Below, in pieces: positions 2,397-64,000 of a stretch of DNA of 64,000 bases. This DNA is from Candidatus Forterrea multitransposorum CG_2015-17_Forterrea_25_41. Lineage in GTDB: Archaea > Iainarchaeota > Iainarchaeia > Iainarchaeales > CSSED10-239. The position numbers and the translations under genes are program-made. Every line of letters begins with the position of its first letter. The stretch's first letter is position 1. The notes under the pieces are model-generated. The model did not search any database, was not told where the DNA came from, and saw only the letters and a program-made list of their open reading frames with translations. The stretch spans positions 96,001 through 160,000 of the forward strand of contig CP045477.1 of assembly GCA_009392915.1 (NCBI GenBank), in the 5' to 3' direction.

Positions 2397-4484
2397 ATGC
2401 AGTTAAAGAAACTAACTTTAGTTTTATTATTTTTATTTATTTTTTCCATACCAGTTTTTTCTTCTTCTATAACTCTTTATGTTTCCTCTCCTTTTTCCTC
2501 TTCATCTTCAAATTTTAGTATTTCTCCTTCACTTTCTTTTGACAAGTTATCTTTAGTTTCAGAAGATAATTTATCTTTATTAAGAGAGCAAAATATTATT
2601 GTTAAAGAAGAAATTATTAAAGAAAAAGAATCTTCTTTAGAAGATAATTCTCTGTTAGAAGAAATAAATTCTCCAAATCATATTTATGAAACTTATTTTC
2701 AAGATTCTGTAATGATTGGAGATGTTTATTTTCCAGAAGGTATAATTGATTCTTCTCAAGTAAGAGAAAGAAGAAATATTAACTCTCAGTCTACAGTTGA
2801 TAATATTTGGGGTACCACTCCATTAACTGGAGAATATCATATTCCTGTTTTTTTAGTTGATTTTTCAGATGTTCCACATACTCTTTCTAAAGAAGTTTTT
2901 GAAGAACAATTTAATTCTCCTCTTTACTTGGACGGTAATGGTACAAGTGTAAGTCAGTATTACAAGAAACAATCCTATGGTGAACTTGATATTACTTTTG
3001 ATGTTTATGATTGGAGAGAAATGCCTGAAACTTATGAATATTATAGTACAAGATTAGGTGTTTTTGGAGCTCAAACAATAGATCTTTTTGGAACTGGTCC
3101 AAATGCAATTGATTTAACTCAATATGATTCTGATAATGATGGTAGGATAGATGGTTTTGTAATTGTTCACGCTGGTTTTTCTTTACAGAACGCTGGTACT
3201 GGTCATATTAAGACATCTACTTTATTAATGTATTCTGATGAAATTTTAACCATTCAAGGTTTGCATTATGGTAATATAGCTGTTACTTCTGAGAGATATC
3301 CTAGTTGTTCTTCTGGTTTTAATGAAAATTTAATTCCATATCCAGATGATTGTAGAATTGGTGTTTTAGATCAAACACATGAGTTTGGTCATATTTTAGG
3401 TCTTCCAGACTTTTATGGTATTGATCCAAATACTGGTGGTCAATCTCCTGGTCTTCAAAACCTAACTATGATGATGATGTATGATGACATTCCTCAAAAA
3501 CCAATTAATTTAGATGCTTGGGCAAGATATTTTTTAGGTTGGATACAACCAACTGTAATTGAAGAGGGCATGGAAGGTGTTTATCCAGTTTATTCAATTG
3601 ACACCAATCCAGATGGTGCTTTTATTTTACAAGATCTAACTGAGATGGATGAACGTGAATTTTTTATAATTGAAAATAGATTTATGCAAAACTCCCCTTA
3701 TAATCAAGATACTTTTCTTTTAAACACTTCTCAACTAAATTGGGATTATTTAAATGGTCATTTTGGTGGAATTGCAGTTTATCATGTTGATGAGCAATAC
3801 ATTGAAGATAATTATCCAACTAACAGTATCATGTGGGATCCTGATGGAGATTTTTATGATGATACTATAGGGCATCCTGGAATCGTTTTTGAAGAAAATA
3901 TAAAATTTTCAGAAAATAATTGGGATTATTCATTAGGAGATTTATATTCTAGTGAACGTAATGCTGGTTTTGGAGATAATACTTTTGGTAATTTTGATAG
4001 ATACCAAAGATTTTATCCAGAATATAATATGTTATGGGATTATCACAATAAAGCCTATAATGGTAATTTAACTGGTGTTACTGTTGGCACTTTAAGTGGT
4101 AGTGGATCTATAGTTTATGCTTATCTTCAAAGTTATCAAGAAACTTTTAATGCTTTAATCTCTTCTCCAAAAAATAACAGATGGTATAAGTATACTAATA
4201 ATTTAAATTTCATTTCAAGTTATTATAATAATTTAGGAGATGTAAGTTGTGTTTGGGAAGATTCCAGTAATAATATTCTATCTCAAGATTGTGAATTTTC
4301 TGCAACTCCAGAAGATTTAGGTTTACCAATCAGTGAATGTTCTGAGAAAATCACTCTAACTTTAGAAATAACAGATCAAGAAACTGGTGATACAATTATT
4401 GATACTGTTGATATAAAGATTTATGAAACCATAAGAGATATTTGTGAGACTGCTCATAACAACACCCAAGCAGCCACAAAATAA
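2397..4484 (+). CDS. secreted M6-family (immune inhibitor A-like) zinc metalloprotease
   Basis: N-terminal signal peptide (LTLVLLFLFIFSIPVFSSS). HEFGHILGLPDFYG matches the HExxHxLGLPDxY motif of the M6 metalloprotease domain (TIGR03296/PF05547 type). Large C-terminal non-catalytic region. Confidence 0.7.
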   Translation: MQLKKLTLVLLFLFIFSIPVFSSSITLYVSSPFSSSSSNFSISPSLSFDKLSLVSEDNLSLLREQNIIVKEEIIKEKESSLEDNSLLEEINSPNHIYETYFQDSVMIGDVYFPEGIIDSSQVRERRNINSQSTVDNIWGTTPLTGEYHIPVFLVDFSDVPHTLSKEVFEEQFNSPLYLDGNGTSVSQYYKKQSYGELDITFDVYDWREMPETYEYYSTRLGVFGAQTIDLFGTGPNAIDLTQYDSDNDGRIDGFVIVHAGFSLQNAGTGHIKTSTLLMYSDEILTIQGLHYGNIAVTSERYPSCSSGFNENLIPYPDDCRIGVLDQTHEFGHILGLPDFYGIDPNTGGQSPGLQNLTMMMMYDDIPQKPINLDAWARYFLGWIQPTVIEEGMEGVYPVYSIDTNPDGAFILQDLTEMDEREFFIIENRFMQNSPYNQDTFLLNTSQLNWDYLNGHFGGIAVYHVDEQYIEDNYPTNSIMWDPDGDFYDDTIGHPGIVFEENIKFSENNWDYSLGDLYSSERNAGFGDNTFGNFDRYQRFYPEYNMLWDYHNKAYNGNLTGVTVGTLSGSGSIVYAYLQSYQETFNALISSPKNNRWYKYTNNLNFISSYYNNLGDVSCVWEDSSNNILSQDCEFSATPEDLGLPISECSEKITLTLEITDQETGDTIIDTVDIKIYETIRDICETAHNNTQAATK

Positions 4485-4561
4485 AAAAATAAGTAAACCA
4501 TTTATATACTTTATGTTATATAATTTATAATATAATTATTTAAAATAAAAAATAAATTAAG

Positions 4562-7531
4562 GTGAATATTTTGATAAAAATAAAAAAAGGACAAATTTCT
4601 TTAGAAGCAATTATTATAATTGGTGTTATTGTTTTAGCAAGTATTATATTTGCGACATTCTATATTTCTAATGTTAATAAAAAAATAGATACTGCAAGTA
4701 ATCTAGATCCTAATTTTTCTGGAATGATTGGATCTGATGAAATGGGGTCAACTGATCCTATAACTATTGGTGAAGAACCAGGTCCAGGCCCAGGTCCAGG
4801 AGGAAGTACTTGTGGTGATAATATTATTGAAGGTACAGAAGATTGTGATGGTACTAATTTAGGTGGTGCTACATGTGAGTCTGAAGGTCAAGGTACAGGA
4901 GATTTATCTTGTAATTCAAATTGTACTTTTGATTATTCTGGTTGTTCTAGTCCAACAGCAAGTTATACAATAACTTCAAGTCATGGATCAAATGGAACTA
5001 TTTTTCCTTTAGGAGCTGTAACAGTTTTAGAAGGGGCAAGTAAAAAATTTAATTTGTATCCAAATGCAGGTTATGATGTAGATACTGTTTCAATTGATGG
5101 TGCAGAAGTTTCTCTTAGTGAAAGAAGAAGTTATACTTTTAATAATGTTACTTCCGGTCATACTATTCATGTAACTTTTAAACCTTATGCTTCAAATGAA
5201 CATATTATTTTTGCAAGTAGTGGTTCTCATGGAACCATAGATCCTGCAAGAAATAATACAGTTATAGAAGGAGATGATATTACTTTTACATTTAATCCAG
5301 ATACAGGATATCGTGTAGGTAATGTCTATATTGATGATACTACTGTTGGTTCAGAACAAATAGAGATTATTAATGATTTTTCTTCAAAAGATTCTGAAAA
5401 TAATAATTTATATTTTTCAGAAGAAGATGTTTTATATTTTGCATCTGATACAGGGACAGGTACTTCTTCAAATTTAGTTTATACTTTTGAAGATGTAGAT
5501 GATAGTCATACTATTCATGTAACTTTTATATCAAACACAACTCCTACATATACTTTAGAATATATTGCTGGAGCAAATGGTAGTATTTCTGGTCCAAATC
5601 CTCAAACTGTAAGTCAAGGAGAAGATGGTACAGAAGTATGTGCTGTTGCAGATGAAGGTTATGAATTTTTTAAATGGGATGATGATTATTATTCTGAATG
5701 TAGAACTGAAACAAATGTAACAAGTAATCAAACATATACTGTTATCTTTAATGAAAATGCAGGTCAAACAATGGCTATGAATTTAGAAGGTGTTGAATCA
5801 ACTCCAATAAATCAAAACTTTGATGTTGTTGTTAATACTTCTGAAACTCCAGGAACTGTAAGTTATGGTTTAGTTGCAGGATTATTAATTTATAATGATG
5901 TTGCAGGAGATTATTTGCCAACAAACAATTGTTCTTATAACGGAACTTTTGCTTCAAATCATACACTTGAAACAAATCAATCTCCAGGTATTGAAAATTA
6001 TACTTTTACATGTAATACTTCTGGAAACTATAAATTTACATTTACAGCAACAGATACAACTAACTCAACAAATGATGTTTCAAGAGATAAATTAATTACT
6101 GTTGTAAATAACCAAACAGCAGCACCAACATTTTCAATTGATGGAGGTACTTATTTTAATGATCAAACATTAACTTTAAGTTCAACAACTCCTAGTGCAA
6201 CTATAAAATACACAACTAATGGTACTATCCCAACTTGTACTACAGGAACAACTTATTCTCCTGCAAGTCCAATTCAAATTAATCAAATTTTAACAGTAAA
6301 AGCAATTGCTTGTAAATCTGGATATATTGATAGTCAAGTTGTTACAGAAATTTATAATTTAAAAGTTGGATATCCAGAACCAAGTGTTAATCCTGGTGTA
6401 TATTCTCAAGCACAGACAATTACTCTTTCAACAGAAACAATTGGTGCAACTTTGTATTATTCAACAGATGGTTCTGATGCTTTTGATGGAAGTGTTTACG
6501 TTCCAGGAGAAGAAATTATAATTTCAAAACCATATACTGAATTAAGAGTGGCAGGAGAAAAATCAAATTATAATGATAGTTCAGAATTTGATGAATATTA
6601 TTATATAAATGGTTATGAATCTCCAACTCCAAGTATGGTTTTTACAAATTATTATGGAGATGCATATAATCTTGTAGGTGCTGCAAATTTAACTCACTCA
6701 GATGTTTTCTTTGAAGATGAAGAAAATAATTTAGTAAGATTTGTTAATCCTAAATTAAATGGAGATTATTTTAACGGAAGTAATGCTTCAGGAGCTACAT
6801 TAATAGATTGTGAGGCATTTTGTTCTGAAAAGTATCTTGGAGGAACTTGTGATTCTTTTGATAAAACTAATTATTCTGGAAATGCAAATAATTTGATATA
6901 TTATAGAAATATGATTCCTGGTTCTGGTGGTGCAAATGATGTTTTCCCTTACACAATTGGGGGTGAGTTATCTAATTCTCCTCAATGGGCTTATGCTTCT
7001 GGAGCTATTGGTGGACCAGATAGAGTAGGATACTTCACTTGTGATTTTTCACACACCTCCAGTCCAGAAGATGCAGACTTTGGATTTATTGATTTATATA
7101 CTGAAGATTTATTATTAAATTATGGTGATCCATTTGATGGTACAGAATTCTATTATGATTCTTCAAGAGTAACTTTTGATAATGTTACAAAGTCTGGTTC
7201 AGAATATACTTATTCAGGTTTAAATGTTGTAGGTAATTTTGACACACCAGGCGCAACTGCTCCAACAGGAACAGTTTATATACTTTCAGATGATTTTTCA
7301 CAAGCTTGTGATGCTGTATGTGATGCTTTATATCAAGAAAGTTCTTGTGAAAATTATGATACAACAGATGTATATACTGCTAAAGGAGTTTCATATAATT
7401 ATTATCCTCCTGAATATGCAACAATATTTAATCCTAATTTAAGTACAGGTTATTATTGGACATCTGGAAGTCAACTTTTCTATGATGTTTGGTCAGAAGC
7501 TGTTCTTTCAGAAGTTACTTGTTCAAAGTAA
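4562..7531 (+). CDS. giant surface adhesin-like protein with archaeal class III (type IV pilin-like) signal peptide
   Basis: N-terminus ..IKIKKG|QISLEAIIIIGVIVLASIIF: short basic leader, G|Q, S+3, E+5, hydrophobic helix (QxSxE, DUF361-type). SD AAGGTGA 4559-4565 favours TTG 4571 as the real start. Also has a PGPGPGPGG linker and a Cys-rich CGDN..EDCDG..C..C repeat. Contains repeated ~80-aa beta modules (YTITSSHGSNGTI / HIIFASSGSHGTI / YTLEYIAGANGSI) and two TIKYTTNGT / TLYYSTDGS modules. Confidence 0.75.
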   Translation: MNILIKIKKGQISLEAIIIIGVIVLASIIFATFYISNVNKKIDTASNLDPNFSGMIGSDEMGSTDPITIGEEPGPGPGPGGSTCGDNIIEGTEDCDGTNLGGATCESEGQGTGDLSCNSNCTFDYSGCSSPTASYTITSSHGSNGTIFPLGAVTVLEGASKKFNLYPNAGYDVDTVSIDGAEVSLSERRSYTFNNVTSGHTIHVTFKPYASNEHIIFASSGSHGTIDPARNNTVIEGDDITFTFNPDTGYRVGNVYIDDTTVGSEQIEIINDFSSKDSENNNLYFSEEDVLYFASDTGTGTSSNLVYTFEDVDDSHTIHVTFISNTTPTYTLEYIAGANGSISGPNPQTVSQGEDGTEVCAVADEGYEFFKWDDDYYSECRTETNVTSNQTYTVIFNENAGQTMAMNLEGVESTPINQNFDVVVNTSETPGTVSYGLVAGLLIYNDVAGDYLPTNNCSYNGTFASNHTLETNQSPGIENYTFTCNTSGNYKFTFTATDTTNSTNDVSRDKLITVVNNQTAAPTFSIDGGTYFNDQTLTLSSTTPSATIKYTTNGTIPTCTTGTTYSPASPIQINQILTVKAIACKSGYIDSQVVTEIYNLKVGYPEPSVNPGVYSQAQTITLSTETIGATLYYSTDGSDAFDGSVYVPGEEIIISKPYTELRVAGEKSNYNDSSEFDEYYYINGYESPTPSMVFTNYYGDAYNLVGAANLTHSDVFFEDEENNLVRFVNPKLNGDYFNGSNASGATLIDCEAFCSEKYLGGTCDSFDKTNYSGNANNLIYYRNMIPGSGGANDVFPYTIGGELSNSPQWAYASGAIGGPDRVGYFTCDFSHTSSPEDADFGFIDLYTEDLLLNYGDPFDGTEFYYDSSRVTFDNVTKSGSEYTYSGLNVVGNFDTPGATAPTGTVYILSDDFSQACDAVCDALYQESSCENYDTTDVYTAKGVSYNYYPPEYATIFNPNLSTGYYWTSGSQLFYDVWSEAVLSEVTCSK

Positions 7532-20560: not shown

Positions 20561-21496
20561 ATGAGTTATTTATCTAAACTTAAAAGAAATAATAAAACAT
20601 ATTATTATCTTGTAGAAAATATTCCTATATCTAAAGGTAGGCGAAAACAAATTAGAAAATATATAGGGACAATTAAACCTACAGATCAAAAATTATCTTT
20701 AGAACTATTAAAGTTTGAAAAAGAAATTACTTCTAAAAAAAAACAAATGCAAGGATTTACCTATTTAACTAAAGAAGAAATAAAAGAAGTAGATGAAATT
20801 AATTCAAATTTTTGGAAAAAATATAATAAATTATCAAAAACTGAGAGAGAAGAATTTTGGAATAATTTTATTGGAATTTTTGTTTTTAACACAAACTCAA
20901 TAGAAGGTTCAACTTTAACATTAAAGGAAGTTGAACTACTATTATCTGAAAATATATCTCCAAATAGACCTTTAGAAGATGTTTTAGAAGCAAAATCTGC
21001 AAAAAAAGCAATTAATTTTATTTTAAATTATAAATCTGATTTGTCAATAGATTTAATTACTAAAATTCATAAAATATATTTTAAAGAAAGCTTTCCAGAT
21101 ATAGCTGGTAAATTTAAAAGATTAAATAATAGAATAAAAGGATCAAAATTTGATACTACTCCAAAAGAACTAGTTTTAACTGATTTAAAAATACTTATAG
21201 ATAATTATAAAAAATTTAAAAAAGAATTACATCCAATAGAATTATCTGCTTGGTTGCATTGGTCTTTTGTAAAAATTCATCCTTTTCAAGATGGAAATGG
21301 AAGAATTTCAAGATTACTTATGAATTTTATACTTTTTAAAAATAAATATGCTTTAATAGATATTAAAACAAAAGAAAAACAAACATATTTTAATTCTCTT
21401 GAAAAATGTAATTATTTGAATAATGGAAAACCATTAGCTCAAAGATTAGTTAGAAGATTTAAAAAACAGTATAAAAATATATTTTCAAATTTATAG
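20561..21496 (+). CDS. Fic/DOC-family protein (AMPylase-type motif)
   Basis: Canonical Fic motif HPFQDGNGRISRLLMNF (HxFx[DE]GNGRxxR). Confidence 0.9.
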   Translation: MSYLSKLKRNNKTYYYLVENIPISKGRRKQIRKYIGTIKPTDQKLSLELLKFEKEITSKKKQMQGFTYLTKEEIKEVDEINSNFWKKYNKLSKTEREEFWNNFIGIFVFNTNSIEGSTLTLKEVELLLSENISPNRPLEDVLEAKSAKKAINFILNYKSDLSIDLITKIHKIYFKESFPDIAGKFKRLNNRIKGSKFDTTPKELVLTDLKILIDNYKKFKKELHPIELSAWLHWSFVKIHPFQDGNGRISRLLMNFILFKNKYALIDIKTKEKQTYFNSLEKCNYLNNGKPLAQRLVRRFKKQYKNIFSNL

Positions 21497-31196: not shown

Positions 31197-32831
31197 ATGG
31201 CAATTAAAAAAAATATTTTAACTTTAGAGCTCAAATTATTAATATTTTCTCTAATTTCTTTATTTGTCCTTAAAATATTTTATATTAAACAATTAGATAT
31301 AATCTTAATTACAACTTTTTTTGATATTTTAATTTTTACATTTATTTTTTCAATTTTTATTTTATTTAAAAATATTTTTTCAAAAGTTTTATTTCATATT
31401 ATTTATGTTTTAAATTTTATTCTTTTTTCTTTTTTCTACATTTTCTATTATGATGTATCTCAAAGAGGGCTTTTCATTTCTAAAATAAAATTAGATGCAA
31501 TTACTTTTGTTTTAAAAAATATTATTTCTTTTAAATTAATATTAATTGTATTTCTTGCTTTATTTTTTATCTATTTTTTATCTTTTTTTATTTTAAAATA
31601 TAAAAAGTTTTTATTAAATTCATTTACTTTAAAATTAGTTTCTGTGATTTCTCTTTTAATATTTTTATTTCTAGTATTATTATTTAATCTAAATTATAAT
31701 CCTTATGCTGATGTTGTTTTAAATTTTAAAAATAGTTTTAGTTATATTCCTTTAGAAGATAATTCTAAAGATTTATCTATTTTTCCAGTAAACAATACAT
31801 TATATCCTGAAAATGAATTAGATATTAAATATAAAAAAATAATTCTGCTTATTGGTGAAGAATGGATGTTTTCTAGCTTTTTGAAAGATAGTAATTCTTT
31901 AGATAATAGTTTTTTTAAAAAAACTGAAAATAATACTCATTTTTATTCAAATTATTACACCACAAATCAAGATAGTAGAACTGCTATTTACACTTTACTT
32001 ACAAGTCAATTTATTCCTTTTGAAGCATATTTAGATTCTACTTATTCAATATATCTTGAAAAGATTAAAACAGTTCCAAGTCTTGTAGATTATTTTAATG
32101 ATAATAATTATTCTTCTTTCTTTGTAGTTTCTTCAATTGAACAACCAGATATTGCAACTCCTTTTAATTGGACTGAAATTGTAACTTTAAAAGAAGATGT
32201 TTATAATAGTAATAATTATTATTGTTCTTCACTTTTTACATATGAAACTTCTTGTGAAGATCTTTCTATTTTAGATGATGTGAAAAAAAAATTAATTTCT
32301 GATGAAAATATATTTTTAGTTCAAGAGTTTATTTATGGTCATAGCTACAAACATATTATAGATACTAAAAAATCAAGAACTCAATATTATAATAATTATT
32401 TTAATTCATTATATGATTTTTTAGAAAAAGAATCCTTGTTAAAAGATACTTTAATAATCATTACTTCAGATCATGGTTCTAGAGCTTACAATGAAATGGT
32501 TTCTCCTGAAGGATATCATATTCCTTTTTTAGTAATTTCAAACAATTTAGATTATAAAGATGATGATTCTCTTTTATCTCATTTAAATTTTAAAGATATT
32601 CTTTATAAATATATCTTAGGTATAGATTATATACCAAACAATAAATCTATAATGTTTACTGGTGGAACAAACAGTGATCTTTTAGGTTTTATTACAAATA
32701 AAAATGATTTTGGAATAATTAATTCTTCTAAATCATTATTAATAAATTATAATAAAGAAGATTTATCTATTAAAGAGAAATCTCAAAATCATTATAGTTA
32801 TTATAATTTTTTAAAAAATAATTTTAAATAA
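31197..32831 (+). CDS. membrane-bound sulfatase-superfamily protein, LtaS/phosphoglycerol-transferase-like
   Basis: About five N-terminal TM helices followed by an extracytoplasmic domain. That domain has IILLIGEEWMFSSF, TNQDSRTAIYTLLTS and IIITSDHGS, which resemble alkaline-phosphatase/sulfatase fold motifs as in LtaS/OpgB/EptA. Confidence 0.55.
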   Translation: MAIKKNILTLELKLLIFSLISLFVLKIFYIKQLDIILITTFFDILIFTFIFSIFILFKNIFSKVLFHIIYVLNFILFSFFYIFYYDVSQRGLFISKIKLDAITFVLKNIISFKLILIVFLALFFIYFLSFFILKYKKFLLNSFTLKLVSVISLLIFLFLVLLFNLNYNPYADVVLNFKNSFSYIPLEDNSKDLSIFPVNNTLYPENELDIKYKKIILLIGEEWMFSSFLKDSNSLDNSFFKKTENNTHFYSNYYTTNQDSRTAIYTLLTSQFIPFEAYLDSTYSIYLEKIKTVPSLVDYFNDNNYSSFFVVSSIEQPDIATPFNWTEIVTLKEDVYNSNNYYCSSLFTYETSCEDLSILDDVKKKLISDENIFLVQEFIYGHSYKHIIDTKKSRTQYYNNYFNSLYDFLEKESLLKDTLIIITSDHGSRAYNEMVSPEGYHIPFLVISNNLDYKDDDSLLSHLNFKDILYKYILGIDYIPNNKSIMFTGGTNSDLLGFITNKNDFGIINSSKSLLINYNKEDLSIKEKSQNHYSYYNFLKNNFK

Positions 32832-32838
32832 ATTTATC

Positions 32839-34143
32839 ATGGCCTTTAAATTATCAAAAAGAATGTTTTTTTTTATAATCTTTCTATTTATCTTTATTTT
32901 TTATTATATTTCTATTAAAGGAAGTTTTGTAGTTTTTTTAATAATGTCTTTTATTTTTTTATATTTAATAGTTTTAATAATTATTTTATATGTTCTTTAT
33001 CCAAATATTGCAAAAGAGAGGGCTTTTCCTAAAAAAGCACCAACTGTTGCAGTAGTAACTTATGCTTTTAATAATTTTCAACCTGTAAAAAGAACTATTG
33101 AAGCTTTATTAAAATTAGAGTATCCTATCCCTTTTAAGGTTTATGTAATAACTGACGGAACTTGTATTTTTTTAAAAAACTTAAAAGGTGTAAAACAAAT
33201 TGTAATTGATAAAAAATATTTTAAAAAATCAAAAAATACTAAATCTATTGTGATGAATGAAGGTTTAAAATATATTAAAGATGAAAATATTTTTTGTGTT
33301 GATGGAGATACTATAGTTGATAGTAAGGCTTTAAAAAGAATGACTGGTTTTTTAGATGAAAAACAAGTAGTTGCTGTAAATGGAATTTTAGTTCCTGAAA
33401 ATAGAAGTAGTTTTTGGGAAAAAGTTCAAGTTATAGAATATAGTCTTAATTGGGGTATTTATCAAAGAATTTTATCTGCAATGGATTCTATTAATATTCC
33501 TATTGGTGCAATGTTTCTAATGAAAAAGAAAGTATTTGATCAATTAGGAGGCTATTCTACAAACAATTTTGTTGAAGATAAAGAATTAGGTTATAGAATT
33601 ATTAAAGCTGGTTATAAGATAAGATGTTGTGAAGTTGCATATGGTTTTACAGAAACTCCTAAAACATTAAATGGCTGGTATAAACAAAGGAAAAGATGGT
33701 CTAGAGGAGAGCTTGCAACTATATATGAGCATAGAGATGTTTTATTTAATTTTAAATATAGTGTATTTGGAATGTTTGTTTTACCTTTTACTTTTTTTGT
33801 TCAAACTGTAGGTGTTGCTTTTATTTTTACATATATTTTTATTTATTTAAGAAGATTTATTATTTTTATTTATTTTTTAATTTCTGAATTTTTAAAAAAC
33901 TCTATTTTATTATATCCTAATTTTAGTAGTATTGTGCTTCCATCTACAATTTATGTTATTTTCTTATCTTTAATAATTTTCTTGATATATGCTTTATTTG
34001 CATTTAAAATAACAAAATTTAACTTAAATTACAAATATATTCTTCCTTTTGCATTTTTTATATTTATATATACCTATTTATTAATTTCTGTATATTTAAT
34101 ATCTATAATACAAGAGTTTTTAGGTTTTGAAAACAAATGGTAG
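32839..34143 (+). CDS. processive family-2 glycosyltransferase (QxxRW synthase type)
   Basis: N-terminal TMs, GT2 core (VAVVTYAFNN.., DGDT, VEDKELGYR), QRKRWSRGE (QxxRW) motif and C-terminal TM bundle. Architecture of PgaC/IcaA/NodC/cellulose-synthase-like enzymes. Confidence 0.8.
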   Translation: MAFKLSKRMFFFIIFLFIFIFYYISIKGSFVVFLIMSFIFLYLIVLIIILYVLYPNIAKERAFPKKAPTVAVVTYAFNNFQPVKRTIEALLKLEYPIPFKVYVITDGTCIFLKNLKGVKQIVIDKKYFKKSKNTKSIVMNEGLKYIKDENIFCVDGDTIVDSKALKRMTGFLDEKQVVAVNGILVPENRSSFWEKVQVIEYSLNWGIYQRILSAMDSINIPIGAMFLMKKKVFDQLGGYSTNNFVEDKELGYRIIKAGYKIRCCEVAYGFTETPKTLNGWYKQRKRWSRGELATIYEHRDVLFNFKYSVFGMFVLPFTFFVQTVGVAFIFTYIFIYLRRFIIFIYFLISEFLKNSILLYPNFSSIVLPSTIYVIFLSLIIFLIYALFAFKITKFNLNYKYILPFAFFIFIYTYLLISVYLISIIQEFLGFENKW

Positions 34144-34864: not shown

Positions 34865-35605
34865 TTGGCTTTACAGCAAACACATGTTATTTTTTTAAAA
34901 GAAATTATAGAGCTACATCCTAATCTTTTAAAAAACTATAATAAAAAATCGCTTTATTATGGAGCTGTTTATCCAGATATTTTTTATATTAGGCTACTTA
35001 AAACTAGACCTAATTTTTCACTTTATCTTCATGAAAATAAAAATATTATAAAAATAGGTGAAGAACTTTATAATAATTCATCTAATATTTCTGAAAGATC
35101 TTTTTCAATTGGTTTTTTATCTCATTTTTTTCTAGATAAAAGAATACATGGTTATTTAGAGAAAATTGGATTTATAGATGGCCCTGAACATTTATCTCTT
35201 GAGTTTTATTTATATATGTTTTTAGATAAAAAAACAAAAGTTAGTGTTTCTAAAAATCCAAACAAATTATTAAAAAAAATATTTAAATTTTATTTTAATA
35301 AACAAAATTATTTTTTTATTCCAAACATATTAATTAAAAGATTATTTTTGTTTGTTTGTAATTATATAATTAAAGAGACTATTGATATTAAGTATAAAAA
35401 AATAAAAAAAGGTAATTTTTTTAAAAATAATTTACTTAAAATCTCTTATTATTTTGCTTTTAATTCTTATGGTTACAGTGTATCTAAATTATTTAATCCA
35501 GATTTTAAATTTTTAGAAAAACATTTGCCTTTTCTTTTAAAAGAATATAATCTGGCAAAAAAAGATTTTATTGATTTTTTAAATAATGGTAATTTTTATG
35601 GTTAA
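34865..35605 (+). CDS. zinc-dependent phospholipase C-like family protein (tentative)
   Basis: ..THVIFL.. near the N-terminus, YYGAVYPDIFY and GFLSHFFLDKRIHGYL resemble the H / G.xxPD / HxxxDxxxH pattern of PF00882-like proteins. TTG start. Confidence 0.4.
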   Translation: MALQQTHVIFLKEIIELHPNLLKNYNKKSLYYGAVYPDIFYIRLLKTRPNFSLYLHENKNIIKIGEELYNNSSNISERSFSIGFLSHFFLDKRIHGYLEKIGFIDGPEHLSLEFYLYMFLDKKTKVSVSKNPNKLLKKIFKFYFNKQNYFFIPNILIKRLFLFVCNYIIKETIDIKYKKIKKGNFFKNNLLKISYYFAFNSYGYSVSKLFNPDFKFLEKHLPFLLKEYNLAKKDFIDFLNNGNFYG

Positions 35606-46443: not shown

Positions 46444-46518
46444 GGGAGTGTAGCTTAGTCTGGTTGGAGCACTCGACTGATAATCGAGAGGCCGCAGGTT
46501 CGAATCCTGCCATTCCCA
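46444..46518 (+). tRNA. tRNA-Ile (anticodon GAU)
   Basis: Acceptor GGGAGTG/CATTCCC, anticodon stem CTCGA/TCGAG, loop CTGATAA, T arm GCAGG-TTCGAAT-CCTGC, discriminator A. TTTATAAATT box about 20 nt upstream. Confidence 0.9.
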
Positions 46519-46559
46519 CTTTCTATTTTTATATAGATTTTAAAAAAAGAGGATAATTT

Positions 46560-49450: not shown

Positions 49451-49525
49451 GGAAGTGTAGCTTAGTCTGGTTAGAGCATTGGTCTTATACACCAAAGGTC
49501 GCAGGTTCGAATCCTGCCATTTCCA
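49451..49525 (+). tRNA. tRNA-Ile (anticodon UAU)
   Basis: Acceptor GGAAGTG/CATTTCC, anticodon stem TTGGT/ACCAA, loop CTTATAC (UAU), T arm GCAGG-TTCGAAT-CCTGC. D and T arms almost identical to tRNA-Ile(GAU) at 46444. Confidence 0.85.
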
Positions 49526-49582
49526 CTTTTTTTTAAAAATAAAGCTTTATAAATCTAATTAACTACTATATATTAGATAATT

Positions 49583-57595: not shown

Positions 57596-58099
57596 ATGTT
57601 AAATAATAAAGTTAATGCTGTAATTGACTCTTCATTTTGGATAAACTTGAGTAGAGTTGATCTTACAAAATATTTATTAGATTATTTTACTATTTATTCT
57701 ACCATAAAAGTAAAAGAAGAACTTTTTGATTTTTACGAAAGAAGAGGTTATTTTTCAAAAGATTCTTATCTTTTTAAGTTATATTTAGAAGCAGATTTTA
57801 TTATTTTAAAAGACCTTAAAGAAATTACTTTAAAAATAAAGCAAGAATTGTCAAAAGATTCTGGAGAGTTATATTCTGCTGCTCTTTTAAAGGAAATTGG
57901 AGGTGTTTTTTTAACAGATGATAAGGGGGCACTTAATTTTTGCAAAAATAATAATCTTTTTGCAATTACTTCTGTTTATTTAATAGTTAGACTTTATAAG
58001 GATAATTTAATATCAAAAGAAAAAGCTAAATTTTCAATTATGCGATTAAAAGGAAAAATAAGTAATATACATATACAATCTGCTTTAAAGGATTTATAG
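57596..58099 (+). CDS. PIN-like nuclease, DUF3368-type toxin
   Basis: N-terminal VIDSSFWINL (acidic PIN site), later ..GELYSAALLKEIG..FLTDDKGA... Directly followed by a UPF0175 gene, the usual partner of DUF3368. Confidence 0.6.
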   Translation: MLNNKVNAVIDSSFWINLSRVDLTKYLLDYFTIYSTIKVKEELFDFYERRGYFSKDSYLFKLYLEADFIILKDLKEITLKIKQELSKDSGELYSAALLKEIGGVFLTDDKGALNFCKNNNLFAITSVYLIVRLYKDNLISKEKAKFSIMRLKGKISNIHIQSALKDL

Positions 58100-58119
58100 T
58101 ATAAAAGGAGGTTTTTAAC

Positions 58120-58476
58120 ATGGTTAAAAAAGATTATAAATTGAAATCTTATAGATTATCTGATAGTTCCTTAAAATTAATATATAATGTTTCTAAAGAA
58201 AAAGATTTGAGTGAATCTGAAGCTTTAAGAATGTTAGTTGACAAAGGGCTTTATGAATATAAGTTAGAGTCAGCAATAAAAACATATTATGATAAAAATT
58301 TAGATTTAACTGCTGGAGCAAAACTTGCTGGTATTTCCAAAAGAGAGTTTATGGAAGAACTTTCAAGAAAAGGGGAAGGTATTAATCTTTCAAAAGAAGA
58401 TTATGATTATTCTAAAAAATCTTTTGAAAAATTATTTGGAAAAACAAAAAAGAAAACTACTCAAAAGCCCAAGTAG
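58120..58476 (+). CDS. UPF0175-family antitoxin-like protein
   Basis: ..AIKTYYDKNLDLTAGAKLAGISKREFMEELSRKGEGI matches the UPF0175 core. The N-terminal part looks RHH-like (KSYRLSDSSLKLI). Confidence 0.6.
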   Translation: MVKKDYKLKSYRLSDSSLKLIYNVSKEKDLSESEALRMLVDKGLYEYKLESAIKTYYDKNLDLTAGAKLAGISKREFMEELSRKGEGINLSKEDYDYSKKSFEKLFGKTKKKTTQKPK

Positions 58477-60141: not shown

Positions 60142-62544
60142 ATGCAAAAGAGATTAGGTATTTTAGGTATTTTTTTAATAGTTTTAATGTTTGTTTTTTC
60201 ATCAGGCTTTGTTTTTGCTGAAAATTCATTTGTAAGTTATAGTTCTACTTCAAAAGTAGGTTGGGAAATAACTTCTGCTGAAATTACAAATGATAATATT
60301 GAAATTAATTACATGAATAATCTTGAAGCAAGAGATTCTTGTAAAACAAATGAAAGAACTTTTATGTGGGTTCCTTTTGCAACAGAATATAGAGGTTTGT
60401 TTTTAGTAACTCTTTTTGTTCCTAATAATTTTAATAATGAATCTGGATTTGATTCATTTTTGTATGATAATTTGTCTGACAGAGGAAAAAGTGAAAATGA
60501 AACAGAAGATACTCTTAAAAAATATGAACGATATTTAAAAAGTAATGATCCTACTTTTATGAATTATTTAAATAGTTATGTTAGTGAAGATAAATATTTT
60601 TATATAGTTAAAATTGAAGATGATTTTAAACAAAATAAAAATTATACTCATAATATTGATTTAAGTATGATTAATGAATTAGATAAATTTGGAAAAGTTT
60701 ATATTTATTTATATGATCATTGTGGAAGTTTATCTTCATTTTATCATAATGACTATAAAATTTCTAAAAATCTTGCGAAAGCAGTTTATAATTTTAGTGA
60801 TGGTCAAGAAGAAACTTCTAAAAAAGAAAATGCTACTTCAATAAAATTATCTTCTTCTATTGAAGATAATAAAATAAAATTAGATTCAAATGTTACTGAT
60901 AATGTTAATATTTATTATACATTAGATGATTTTAATTTAGAAAACCATTTTAAATCAAAATTTGTTGAATTTAATTATAATAAAGAAAAAATAAATACTT
61001 ATCTTAAAAGTAATTCTTGGAATATTAATCAATTTGGGGTAAATTTTAAAGTGACTAAATATACTGCACCTGTATCTTTATCTTCTGGACAAAAACTAAA
61101 TGCAATTGCAGTTAATTATGATAATTTTACTTTAAGTAATTATCTTGAAGGAATTACTCTTTCATCTTCTGAAAATTATTCTTCATCTTCTCAAAGCAAT
61201 AATTTTTCAATTAACTTTAAAGAAGATAAAAAAACAGATAATGTGATTTGTGAAAAGGAAACAAAAATTTGTTATGTTAAATTTAATCAAAACATTGATT
61301 TAGATTTAATTGCAAATAAAGTAAATGATGGAAATGTTTATTTTTATATTAATGATATAGAAGGAGATATTGAAAATATTGTAAAAAGCTTATCTTCTCC
61401 TCTTTTAAATATTACACCACCTGCTAAATTAAATGATAATAAACTAAGTTTAGGAAGTAATTTATTCAAATATTCAGATTTAGAAAATTATACTCTAAAT
61501 CTTAATCAAAATGAATCAAAGTTTTTTACTATTAGTGCTTTCCAATTAAATACAAATGTTGATAAGTTATATTTTGTATTTTTACCTGACGAAAACTTTG
61601 AAGATTTAGTAAAATATAAAACTTTACAAAAAATAATAAATTCTGTATATTGTGATGGTTGTAAAATTCCAGATTGGATGCCAAATGGATTAATAATTGA
61701 TAATCAAAATTTATCTACTAGTGATCCTGATCCTTCTACTAGTGATCCTGATCCTTCTACTAGTGATCCAAATTGTAAATATACTGGTGATTTTGAAATT
61801 TTATGTGATTTTCATATCTTTAATTTAGATAAAGATATTGGAAGTAGTTCTATTGATAGTTCAGCAGGAACATTTAGCCCTAAAGAAACATATTATTTAG
61901 AAATTGAATATTTTTATAATGATAAAAAAAATAATTTTAATAAAAATTTAGAAGCTTATAAATTATTTGAATCTGAAAAAAATAATTTTAATCTTACTGA
62001 AAATGAAATTACAATATTTTTTTCAATAATTGGAGGAGAATCCTCTTTTTTAAATGATCAAGCTGGTGATCAAGGAGAATCTATAGGTTTAACTCAAATA
62101 AATAAACCTATATGGAGAACAGAAAGTGGTTTTAATGATCTAAAAGTATATCTTCCAAGTGAAGTTAATACAGTTGAAAAATATTATAAATATTTTGATG
62201 ATTCTAAAAATGATTTAAATAAATCTTTATATTTAGGTCTTGCAGTTTTTAAATATAATTTAAATTATGCTAAAAATAATATTTCTAACTTTAATTCAAA
62301 GTATTCAGATATTGATAGAGCATTTATAATGTTTTACGCACACCAGTTTAATATAAGAGATACAAAAACATTCTTTAATACTGTAAATATTCCTACAGAT
62401 AAAGAAAATGTAATTATTAATTGTGCAGGAACTGGTAATGATTTATTCCAAAATTCTTCTTTAAAGAAACTTGGTTGTGTTGCGACTGTAGGTTCTGTAA
62501 GAAAAATTGGATGGTATCTTAATTACATAAATAATTTAAATTAA
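60142..62544 (+). CDS. secreted 800-aa protein with C-terminal lytic-transglycosylase-like (SLT, PF01464-like) domain
   Basis: Signal peptide LGIFLIVLMFVFSSGFVFA. C-terminal ..IIGGESSFLNDQAGDQGESIGLTQI.. matches the SLT pattern ES.F...A.S..GA.GLMQ. Downstream ..LYLGLAVFKYNL.. and ..FIMFYAHQ.. resemble later SLT helices. An STSDPDP linker precedes it. Confidence 0.55.
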   Translation: MQKRLGILGIFLIVLMFVFSSGFVFAENSFVSYSSTSKVGWEITSAEITNDNIEINYMNNLEARDSCKTNERTFMWVPFATEYRGLFLVTLFVPNNFNNESGFDSFLYDNLSDRGKSENETEDTLKKYERYLKSNDPTFMNYLNSYVSEDKYFYIVKIEDDFKQNKNYTHNIDLSMINELDKFGKVYIYLYDHCGSLSSFYHNDYKISKNLAKAVYNFSDGQEETSKKENATSIKLSSSIEDNKIKLDSNVTDNVNIYYTLDDFNLENHFKSKFVEFNYNKEKINTYLKSNSWNINQFGVNFKVTKYTAPVSLSSGQKLNAIAVNYDNFTLSNYLEGITLSSSENYSSSSQSNNFSINFKEDKKTDNVICEKETKICYVKFNQNIDLDLIANKVNDGNVYFYINDIEGDIENIVKSLSSPLLNITPPAKLNDNKLSLGSNLFKYSDLENYTLNLNQNESKFFTISAFQLNTNVDKLYFVFLPDENFEDLVKYKTLQKIINSVYCDGCKIPDWMPNGLIIDNQNLSTSDPDPSTSDPDPSTSDPNCKYTGDFEILCDFHIFNLDKDIGSSSIDSSAGTFSPKETYYLEIEYFYNDKKNNFNKNLEAYKLFESEKNNFNLTENEITIFFSIIGGESSFLNDQAGDQGESIGLTQINKPIWRTESGFNDLKVYLPSEVNTVEKYYKYFDDSKNDLNKSLYLGLAVFKYNLNYAKNNISNFNSKYSDIDRAFIMFYAHQFNIRDTKTFFNTVNIPTDKENVIINCAGTGNDLFQNSSLKKLGCVATVGSVRKIGWYLNYINNLN
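61714..61770 (+). repeat. perfect 21-nt in-frame tandem repeat (2.7 copies) encoding STSDPDP
   Basis: TCTACTAGTGATCCTGATCCT at 61714-61734 and 61735-61755, then TCTACTAGTGATCCA at 61756-61770. Confidence 0.95.
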
Positions 62545-62610: not shown

Positions 62611-64000
62611 ATGAGTAAAAGATATTTTACAATAATTTTCTTTATATTTCTAATAATAGGTTTATCTGTTCCTATTTTTTCTGCAGAAATAAACCTAAAT
62701 CCTTCTAAAACTTATTACTACAACCAAGAAATTAATCTAGGAACAACTTCTCTTCCAGAAGAAACTTTCTATGTAAACCTAAAAATAACTTCTGAAAACA
62801 GAACTTTATTTGAAAGAGATTTTTTAAAAGAAGAAGCTTTTAACATCCCTTTTATCTTTCAAGACTTCTACCCTTCTTCTTTAACTTTAACTTATAATTA
62901 TTTTTCAGTTTCTAAAGATTTACTTGAAACAAAAGAAGCTAATTTACTTTTAACAAAACTAAACCAAGAGATTGAATATTTTTTCTGTAATGAAATTGAA
63001 TGTGAAAAAGAACTTTTTGATGTTATTGAAGAAAATAAAGATTTCTATCTTTCCTCTTCTCTAAAAAACATGTCTTTTACAGTAAAGATAACTTCACAAG
63101 ATTATTTAAAAGACTACAAAGAAGTATCTTTACCTTTAAAACTTAATTTAAAAGAAGGAGTTTATTCTTTAGAGATTTCAACACTTCTTGATGATTCAAT
63201 ATTTTCAAAGACTTTAGATATTATTGTAGTCTCACAAGATCAGATTTCTTCTCCTGAAAACAATCCTTCAGGTCTTGAAGGTTTAGGTTCTGGTGTTCAA
63301 GGTGTTCCTTCTCAAAATATTTTTCAAAAAATAAAAAGTAACAGCTTACAAGATAATTTAAGAAGCTATTGGTATATTCTTTTAATAATTATTATTTTAT
63401 TATTTTTAATATTTAAAAAAAGAAAAAAAGAACCTATGCAAGAAAATATTAAAAAAGAAAGTTCTCTTTCAAGAAGAGAAGCAAGAAAAATACATTTATT
63501 TATATTATTAATAATTATTTCTTTATTTTCACAAATTACTTTTGCAAACTTTGTTGATAAAGAATACGAGTTTAGTTACTTTACAGATGATTATAAACTT
63601 TTAGAAAAAAACTTTCCTCAAGAAAACGAAATTTCTTTATATCTTACAAATTTAAAGCAAACTAATTCTTATTTTTTACCTTTAATAAACCATACAAACC
63701 AATCTTTAGTTTATTCTCAGAAAAAAGAACTTTATCAAGGAACACTAGAATACATTCCAATATATTCTTTATTTGCAATTGATATAAATAAATCACAAGG
63801 AAATTATGCTCCTTTCTTGCCAAATGAACAATATTCTCAATATTGTAAACCAGTTTTAGATTATTTTAAAAATCATCCTGTTAGTACAAAAGTAGATTTA
63901 ATAAACAGAAATAAATTTTATTTAACAAATTATATTGGTTTTTCAAAAGAATGTATAGATGAGCTTATCTCTAAAAGATGGCTTCAAGAAAAATATGTTT
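62611..64000 (+). CDS. secreted/membrane protein, partial (open to window end), two signal-peptide-bearing modules in one frame
   Basis: Hand translation from ATG 62611 shows no stop to 64000, so it is absent from the ORF track. MSKRYFTIIFFIFLIIGLSVPIFSA signal, TM YWYILLIIIILLFLIF plus KKRKKE at about 63370-63432. Then Met (63436) QENIKKESSLSRREARKIHLFILLIIISLFSQITFA|N looks like a second signal peptide. Confidence 0.6.
   Translation, partial: MSKRYFTIIFFIFLIIGLSVPIFSAEINLNPSKTYYYNQEINLGTTSLPEETFYVNLKITSENRTLFERDFLKEEAFNIPFIFQDFYPSSLTLTYNYFSVSKDLLETKEANLLLTKLNQEIEYFFCNEIECEKELFDVIEENKDFYLSSSLKNMSFTVKITSQDYLKDYKEVSLPLKLNLKEGVYSLEISTLLDDSIFSKTLDIIVVSQDQISSPENNPSGLEGLGSGVQGVPSQNIFQKIKSNSLQDNLRSYWYILLIIIILLFLIFKKRKKEPMQENIKKESSLSRREARKIHLFILLIIISLFSQITFANFVDKEYEFSYFTDDYKLLEKNFPQENEISLYLTNLKQTNSYFLPLINHTNQSLVYSQKKELYQGTLEYIPIYSLFAIDINKSQGNYAPFLPNEQYSQYCKPVLDYFKNHPVSTKVDLINRNKFYLTNYIGFSKECIDELISKRWLQEKYV

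Follow-up and report, generated by a model that had tools for sequence, protein, structure and literature searches.

The stretch analyzed here, hereafter the window, comprises 64,000 nucleotides from Candidatus Forterrea multitransposorum, a member of the Iainarchaeota (contig CP045477.1, positions 96,001 to 160,000 of the forward strand). Near its right end, an open reading frame (ORF; 60142..62544, plus strand) with an ATG start encodes a predicted secreted protein of 800 amino acids, whose C-terminal part belongs to a strongly diverged branch of the soluble lytic transglycosylase (SLT)/GH23 lineage. An identical protein (P0036) has been deposited at NCBI under the label 'hypothetical protein [archaeon]', on contigs with lengths of up to 840 kb. 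The features of the gene and its downstream neighbor are summarized in Table 1.

Table 1. Features of the lysozyme-like gene and the adjacent gene in the window
Feature	Coordinates	Strand	Basis
Whole gene: predicted secreted 800-aa protein with a C-terminal GH23/SLT-like domain	60142..62544	+	ORF list
Sec-type signal peptide or signal anchor, residues 1-26	60142..60219	+	predicted cleavage after VFA
Variable Asn/Ser/Lys-rich N-terminal region, residues 27-354	60220..61203	+	no alignment possible between distant positional orthologs
Weak CHB_HEX_C/Fn3_assoc-like stretch, residues 246-325	60877..61116	+	sub-threshold Pfam matches
Conserved Cys-containing module before the catalytic domain, residues 355-515	61204..61686	+	conservation in alignment A1 and in the family consensus
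STSDPDP linker from a perfect tandem repeat	61714..61769	+	Tandem Repeats Finder: period 21 bp, 2.7 copies, 100% matches
Pre-domain segment with conserved C545/C555 pair, residues 544-599	61771..61938	+	conservation in alignments A1 and A2; structure uncertain
Lysozyme-like (GH23/SLT family-1-like) predicted catalytic domain, residues 600-800	61939..62541	+	
Active-site segment GGE633S634SF...G649LTQ652IN	62032..62103	+	predicted catalytic Glu at helix end and beta-hairpin 'GLxQ'
Large orphan partner gene, runs off the window	62611..64000	+	open frame to the window end

The single hydrophobic segment of the protein on the Kyte-Doolittle scale spans residues 1-31 (MQKRLGILGIFLIVLMFVFSSGFVFA, followed by EN); no other membrane-like stretch is present, and the 'VFA' end ('F.S..VFA') is retained in the family consensus. 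Since the only hydrophobic segment is N-terminal and 'VFA' is kept in the relatives, the protein is predicted to be exported by the Sec pathway and to be either cleaved or anchored by its N-terminus. The initial annotation of this locus had likewise recognized a signal peptide, followed by unassignable N/S/K-rich sequence and a perfect STSDPDP linker, and all three are borne out. Asn, Ser, and Lys constitute 12.8%, 10.0%, and 8.5% of the protein, respectively (against 6.3% Asn for ten other ORFs in the window), and the N-terminal ~540 residues have no significant assignment in Pfam, NCBIfam, or PDB, including a comparison of the full-length alignment profile with PDB. The linker repeat is 100% identical at the DNA level and translates to STSDPDP-STSDPDP-STSDPN. 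The repeat array is length-polymorphic, since P0001, a protein 99% identical to that of the window, differs by exactly one unit of seven residues.

Within the N-terminal region, residues 246-325 match the Pfam families Fn3_assoc (E=0.003) and CHB_HEX_C_1 (E=0.13), both below the cut-off; Fn3_assoc is matched by five family members, with the best E-value of 1.4e-4. The Cys-containing module preceding the catalytic domain has invariant residues in alignment A1 that include C370, C377, Y378, Y400, F401, Y503, C504, C507, and P510-D-W-M-P514, and the motifs C....CY and Y.IN.KI.N..YC...C..P.W are retained in the consensus of 34 members. The profile search of PDB matched nothing over this module (residues ~355-515); it is possibly a binding module. 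The protein contains ten cysteines in total. C545 and C555 are invariant, together with K546, in alignments A1 and A2; the pre-domain segment to which they belong has a predicted local distance difference test score (pLDDT) below 50 in the first AlphaFold2 (AF2) model. An additional pair, C761/C779, is found close to the C-terminus.

The lysozyme-like domain

The domain was modelled from an alignment of 24 sequences (A4); the full-length family alignment comprises 34 members, and its columns are on average 14% identical. For residues 600-800, the AF2 model based on A4 has a mean pLDDT of 91.9 and a predicted TM-score of 0.90, and supersedes the first model (8 sequences, residues 544-800), for which the pLDDT was 63. 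In a Foldseek search of PDB with the newer model, the top matches all belong to GH23 (probability 0.85-1.0), and murein lytic transglycosylases make up all eight of the best structural matches. As judged from this model, the C-terminal 200 residues adopt the goose-lysozyme/soluble-lytic-transglycosylase (GH23) fold.

Profile comparisons lead in the same direction. The family profile has its best PDB matches among C-type lysozymes (E=0.0014), aligned over the catalytic segment, with the invariant Glu placed on Glu35 and G-x-x-Q-I-N on G-I-L-Q-I-N. In pairwise hhalign comparisons, A4 aligns with Escherichia coli MltE (E=0.0012), where E633 falls on Glu64 ('IAIES') and GLTQ on GLMQ, and with the C-domain of Slt70 (E=0.0042), where E633 falls on the Glu of 'RQES' and GLTQ again on GLMQ. 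The window protein has no match to the Pfam SLT family even at E<=10 (gathering threshold 21.3 bits). P0007 alone clears the gathering score (23.2 vs 21.3 bits, profile positions 10-106 of 117), and P0010 (19.0 bits) and P0009 (14.7 bits) remain below it. P0007 is a clear member of the family (family-profile E-value 5e-101; 36% identity over residues 600-800 and 41% over residues 544-800). Membership in SLT thus rests on transitive homology, because P0007 passes the Pfam threshold and the window protein does not. No meaningful match for the lysozyme-like domain itself was obtained in PHROGs.

Only three columns, E633, S634, and Q652, are invariant across the 34 full-length members; G649, A701, F728, Y732, K788, and Y792 are nearly so. 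This is the pattern expected of an active site built from Glu-Ser and a G-x-x-Q hairpin. The segment GGESSFLNDQAGDQGESIGLTQI (GGESSF...GESIGLTQIN; residues 631-653, nucleotides 62032..62100) contains the first two motifs of the SLT family: motif I, Glu-Ser at the end of the catalytic helix, is represented by the invariant E633-S634, aligned to E64 of MltE and to 'QES' of Slt70, and motif II, G-L-M-Q, by G649-L-T-Q652, in which Q is invariant and G nearly so. The region of motif III reads F728-x-x-x-Y732-A-H-Q, in which the N and G of AYNxG are not kept; the equivalence with AYNxG is inferred from the helix order. By fold, motif, and transitive homology, the domain belongs to the SLT/GH23 lineage, as a branch that has diverged strongly.

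The initial annotation had assigned an SLT/lysozyme fold to this region and had proposed a Pfam scan and conservation of the catalytic Glu among homologs as checks. The fold is upheld by the AF2 model, the GH23 matches in Foldseek, the profile alignment, and P0007; E633 is conserved in every full-length member, and the Pfam scan was positive for the homolog P0007 and negative for the window protein itself.

We suggest that Glu633 would be the only general acid/base in the cleavage of the beta-1,4 bond between N-acetylmuramic acid (MurNAc) and N-acetylglucosamine (GlcNAc) of bacterial peptidoglycan. Goose-type lysozyme uses the catalytic Glu73 assisted by Asp86/Asp97, and the family-1 lytic transglycosylases have an active site with a single carboxylate. 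At the position of Asp52 of hen egg-white lysozyme, the window protein has Ser647, and Ser also occupies this position in the family profile. The residue following Q-I/V is Asn654 in the window protein and mostly N, H, Y, or E in the family; from a comparison of the motifs, it would correspond to the assisting Asp97 of goose lysozyme. Asp643 is only semi-conserved. Because no conserved second carboxylate is found at the Asp52 and Asp97 positions, the sequence makes a reaction of the lytic-transglycosylase type, with a 1,6-anhydroMurNAc product, somewhat more likely than simple hydrolysis.

The closest known relatives are the family-1 lytic transglycosylases (PF01464, GH23) such as Slt70, MltC, MltE, MltF, C. 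jejuni Cj0843c, and phage phiKZ gp144, with which the window protein shares the position of Glu-Ser, the G-L-x-Q hairpin, and the lack of a conserved second carboxylate; a conserved Tyr is found at the presumed place of AYNxG. It differs from them in being only 9-14% identical in structural alignments, missed by Pfam and NCBIfam, degenerate in AYNxG, and equipped with the extra C761/C779 pair. It is also archaeal, and its lysozyme-like domain is joined to a unique Cys-rich module and to a variable region rich in Asn; bacterial accessory domains such as the superhelix of Slt70, LysM, and the ABC-like domain of MltF are absent. The C-type lysozymes (GH22, PF00062), which provide the best sequence alignment of the family profile (over ES...G.xQIN), share the Glu35 equivalent; however, Asp52 is replaced by S647, the C-type disulfide pattern is missing, and the best score of the family against Pfam Lys is 18.7 bits (P0015; threshold 27 bits), with no match for the window protein. 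Compared with goose-type lysozyme (GH23), the Glu is present, Asn654 presumably stands at the position of the assisting Asp, and Asp643 is semi-conserved.

Family members and the conserved locus

A word-indexed search yielded eight homologs, and an exhaustive profile search with HMMER, covering 1.84 billion cluster representatives, retrieved 32 proteins at E<=1e-3. Since so few proteins were found in the exhaustive search, the family profile does not reach the canonical SLT families; the weak end of the list contains an insect C-type lysozyme repeat protein (P0032) and a Phage_lysozyme2 protein (P0035). Named members come from Iainarchaeum ('Candidatus [I]ainarchaeum sp.') or from unclassified archaea, and among the GTDB species representatives, a close copy (81% identical over the domain) was found in one, 'Candidatus Iainarchaeum archaeon'. 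The proteins are 481-1283 residues long. Six members have additional lectin-like Lcl_C (DUF1566) domains and two have leucine-rich repeats (LRR), so that diverse binding modules accompany the catalytic domain. NlpC/P60, Lcl_C, and LRR domains are all absent from the window protein. An initial guess that the C-terminal extension of P0005 is CHAP-like was dropped, since no peptidase match was found.

The gene occupies a fixed place among housekeeping genes, in the order IleRS, AsnRS, (toxin-antitoxin), CysRS on the opposite strand, family member, (large orphan), Kae1/TsaD, PTH2, and Hjc. Corresponding stretches of this neighborhood were found in the window, L001/L005, L003, L006 (with P0030, 1283 residues and LRRs), and L008 (with P0016, 481 residues). 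Between the window and L001, the flanking aminoacyl-tRNA synthetases are 89-92% identical and the family protein 60%; between the window and L003 or L006, the synthetases are 65-71% identical and the family protein ~25%, over its C-terminal part only. As positional orthologs diverge while synteny holds, the gene appears to be vertically inherited with rapid evolution, which is typical of surface or host-interaction proteins. Copy number varies from one in the window to a tandem pair in L002 (269..5284) and two copies around CysRS in L003 (8001..17733), one of which carries an NlpC/P60-like domain.

The domain had been described as bacterial-type in the initial annotation. This holds for the fold and the active-site motif; no close bacterial homolog was found among the 1.84 billion cluster representatives, and there is no sign of recent transfer. 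Recent horizontal transfer was rejected, since the GC content of the gene (~0.21-0.23) matches that of the window (0.19-0.29), the synteny is conserved, and no close bacterial homologs turned up in the exhaustive search. A different setting was observed for P0022 (505 residues), whose 21-kb contig (L007, 1..18297) contains mostly unannotated small ORFs on the same strand, with a weak Peptidase_M23 gene two genes downstream of P0022. Such a contig resembles a virus or mobile element more than the chromosomal syntenic locus, and the family domain therefore may also travel on mobile DNA.

The orphan gene that follows the lysozyme-like gene is 64% identical to the one at 12457-16320 of L001, where, as in L005, it also follows a family member, and 28-31% identical to the gene located after the positional ortholog in L003. 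Its relatives are ~1287 residues long and consist of a signal peptide, an ectodomain of ~250 residues, two transmembrane helices that flank a short basic loop, and a C-terminal region of ~950 residues. The database search yielded three homologs of the orphan, none of them informative, and no Pfam domain. The run of secreted proteins, and with it the host-interaction locus, that had been proposed to start at the lysozyme-like gene is thereby reduced to one further large protein with a signal peptide and two transmembrane segments (62611 onward). A long island of secreted proteins was rejected, as Kae1/TsaD, PTH2, and Hjc come next in the relatives; because housekeeping genes follow the partner there, the locus is a conserved pair of two genes, and the proposed locus survives as a single conserved orphan partner.

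The same block of housekeeping genes carries a pair of the toxin-antitoxin type, a PIN-like (DUF3368) and a UPF0175 gene, between AsnRS and CysRS, both in the window (57596..58476, plus strand) and in L001 (7411..8288). An AbiEii gene lies on the other side of CysRS in L003, and there is no insert in L006. Small mobile modules of the defence or toxin-antitoxin type seem to have a hotspot in this block.

Substrate and possible role

The substrate is not fixed by the fold alone, because chitinases and a cellulase share the lysozyme-like fold. Murein is favored by the set of family-1 SLT motifs and by the additional C-terminal NlpC/P60-like domain of two paralogs, P0015 and P0027. A profile of these two sequences matches the Bacillus subtilis peptidoglycan endopeptidase LytE (E=0.001), mycobacterial NlpC/P60 of the RipC type (E=0.0097), and, more weakly, MepS/Spr; the motifs GG..DC.G and H..G.Y align between this domain and the NlpC/P60 peptidases, and it also matches phrog_329, a family of phage 'minor tail proteins' (E=4e-9). 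The combination of a glycan-cleaving domain with a peptidase acting on the stem peptide is the classic architecture of peptidoglycan hydrolases. A lysozyme fold is joined to NlpC/P60, as in P0015 and P0027, in Tn916-type hydrolases, phage tail lysins, and type VI secretion effectors such as Tse3/TseP, from which the window protein differs by the lack of a peptidase domain; no secretion-system or conjugation context was seen around it.

We therefore consider the window protein, with a probability of about 60%, to be an Iainarchaeota enzyme that is secreted, either into the medium or retained at the surface, and cleaves the glycan strands of murein. The Cys-rich module and the variable N-terminal region would probably bind or position the enzyme on the target surface, and the repeat linker would give it reach. 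The enzyme would serve to breach, attach to, or feed on the walls of bacteria, be they living partners, prey, or necromass, and the fast divergence of a syntenic, vertically inherited gene would fit a protein of the surface or of host interaction. An archaeon without murein would need no immunity protein. In agreement with the initial annotation, the archaeal nature of the window is confirmed by aIF-2, aIF-2 gamma, GatE, and a thermosome subunit, each of which scores above the curated cut-off. Genes of murein synthesis are also missing, as neither a Mur ligase nor MraY or MurG was found in the 29 ORFs scanned, out of 54 ORFs of at least 100 residues.

Several observations weigh against such an enzyme. 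The Foldseek E-values are weak (0.06-1) with TM-scores of ~0.5, the hhalign alignments span 30-35 columns only and have low probability, and the window protein taken as a single sequence, either in full or as its C-terminal part, has no relevant match in Pfam, NCBIfam, or PDB. The AYNxG motif is degenerate in it (FYAHQ), and the fusion with NlpC/P60 was found in paralogs rather than in the window protein. The inspected sequence is only a part of one genome, so that Mur-like genes may occur elsewhere in it, and we know of no bacterial partner of Iainarchaeota.

It is also conceivable, though unlikely, that the GH23-like fold was recruited for a glycan other than murein: chitin or chito-oligosaccharides, or an exopolysaccharide or envelope glycan that contains GlcNAc and is synthesized either by the archaeon or by a host that is itself archaeal, with a role in nutrition or in remodelling of the envelope or exopolysaccharide. 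Lysozyme-like folds that act on chitin have precedents in the GH23 and GH19 chitinases, and the weak signals of the chitobiase/hexosaminidase-associated families CHB_HEX_C_1/Fn3_assoc in the N-terminal region would suit such a substrate. A beta-glycan of the cell's own may be made by a processive-type GT2 glycosyltransferase, whose gene adjoins that of a sulfatase-family protein in the window; however, it is situated ~26 kb from the lysozyme-like gene, and no link exists between the two. Moreover, the eight best structural matches act on murein without exception, the set of ES, GLxQ, and, presumably, Tyr is that of the family-1 SLTs, and the NlpC/P60-like peptidase domain in the two paralogs makes sense for murein only. 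Archaeal hosts, which known cultivated DPANN have (PMC8204110), would be in line with a non-murein glycan of the host and also with the pseudomurein of methanogens (Methanobacteriales or Methanopyrales). The NlpC/P60-type fusions, however, resemble murein peptidases of bacteria and phages, which argues against pseudomurein. The beta-1,3 bonds between GlcNAc and N-acetyltalosaminuronic acid in pseudomurein are not cleaved by lysozymes, and the known pseudomurein lysins are peptidases; we thus regard this target as highly improbable.

Another reading, which seems to us rather improbable, dispenses with catalysis: a dead or weakly active domain would serve mainly as an adhesin, binding glycans and thereby fastening the small cell to bacteria or to other surfaces, with the Glu kept for binding. 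The large variable N-terminal region, the repeat linker, the relatives with Lcl_C and LRR, and the fast divergence are all compatible with an adhesin, and attachment to bacterial walls was discussed as a role of DPANN lytic transglycosylases by Castelle et al. (PMC8204110). However, the catalytic Glu-Ser and the hairpin Gln are strictly invariant in 34 sequences that are otherwise 14% identical, as is predicted by purifying selection for catalysis. Lysozyme-like proteins that only bind typically lose the catalytic Glu, which also speaks against this reading.

Secreted proteins with murein lytic transglycosylase domains, and the idea of their role at bacterial walls, are already known from other DPANN lineages. 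Family fam00969 of Pacearchaeota and Woesearchaeota (module 98) consists of such proteins, and binding or degradation of bacterial walls was proposed for them (Castelle et al. 2021, PMC8204110). The same study cites earlier DPANN cases (Rinke 2013; Castelle 2015), in Woese-, Pace-, and Nanoarchaeota since 2013. For Woesearchaeota, GH23 has been reported together with a 'vampiristic' lifestyle (Vigneron et al. 2022, PMC9723730), and later surveys repeated the finding of these enzymes in DPANN (PMC10936187, PMC11537232). The Iainarchaeota family resembles these proteins in being secreted (as predicted), multi-domain, encoded in a small DPANN genome, and provided with a domain of the GH23/SLT type, and the ecological inference is the same. 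The known proteins were found by standard Pfam/CAZy annotation of GH23, whereas most members of the Iainarchaeota family are missed by Pfam; the latter are also smaller (481-1283 vs up to 3000 residues) and reside in a fixed housekeeping locus. No report of secreted murein lytic transglycosylases in Iainarchaeota was found in the literature, the coverage of which was not exhaustive. What is new here is the Iainarchaeota lineage, a domain cryptic to Pfam and NCBIfam, a small self-contained family with its own module, and a fixed locus with extreme divergence.

The murein lytic transglycosylase trait is thereby extended to Iainarchaeota. Few DPANN phyla have known hosts and lifestyles, and a secreted murein-cleaving enzyme is a rare clue, at the level of sequence, to interaction with bacteria rather than archaea. 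Because routine Pfam annotation can miss such enzymes, DPANN surveys that score GH23 as present or absent probably undercount them. Fixed synteny combined with extreme divergence makes the gene a convenient marker locus for the evolution of host interaction in the phylum, and the 200-residue domain is tractable for expression and for screening of antibacterial enzymes. If the substrate were not murein, the domain would represent a new specificity within the lysozyme fold.

More speculatively, and with little confidence, one may imagine an old, vertically inherited gene of the Iainarchaeota core genome that evolves in an arms race and swaps NlpC/P60, Lcl_C, and LRR modules, in a phylum that has long been attacking or attaching to bacteria; the orphan partner would then belong to this apparatus as well. 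If so, a whole DPANN phylum without a known host would have made its living in this way, across the domain boundary, for a long time.

Other genes of the window

A 246-residue ORF (34865..35605, plus strand) matches Zn-dependent phospholipase C (PF00882, E=1.6e-12), a membrane-attacking enzyme of the type of bacterial toxins that is unusual in archaea. It could belong, together with the lysozyme-like protein, to one repertoire for attacking other cells. The sulfatase-family protein (PF00884, 544 residues) and the processive-type GT2 glycosyltransferase (PF13641/PF13632, 434 residues) mentioned above are encoded one after the other at 31197..34143 (plus strand).

A second cluster of large extracellular proteins is located at 2397..7531 (plus strand). 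It consists of a 695-residue protein with an M6-family metalloprotease domain, scoring slightly below the cut-off (108 vs 110.8 bits), and an adjoining 989-residue surface protein, whose signal peptide is of the archaeal class III (pilin) type and which also has strong CHB_HEX_C_1/Fn3_assoc domains and an InlB B-repeat.

Two isoleucine tRNA genes were found, one with the anticodon GAT (46444..46519) and one with TAT (49451..49526, plus strand). Most archaea read AUA with an agmatidine-modified tRNA having the anticodon CAU, and tRNA-Ile with UAU occurs in a few reduced lineages, for instance, in Nanoarchaeum. The tRNA-Ile(TAT) of the window may reflect the very AT-rich codon usage. Finally, a Fic/DOC-family protein (PF02661, E=2e-19) is encoded at 20561..21496 on the plus strand.

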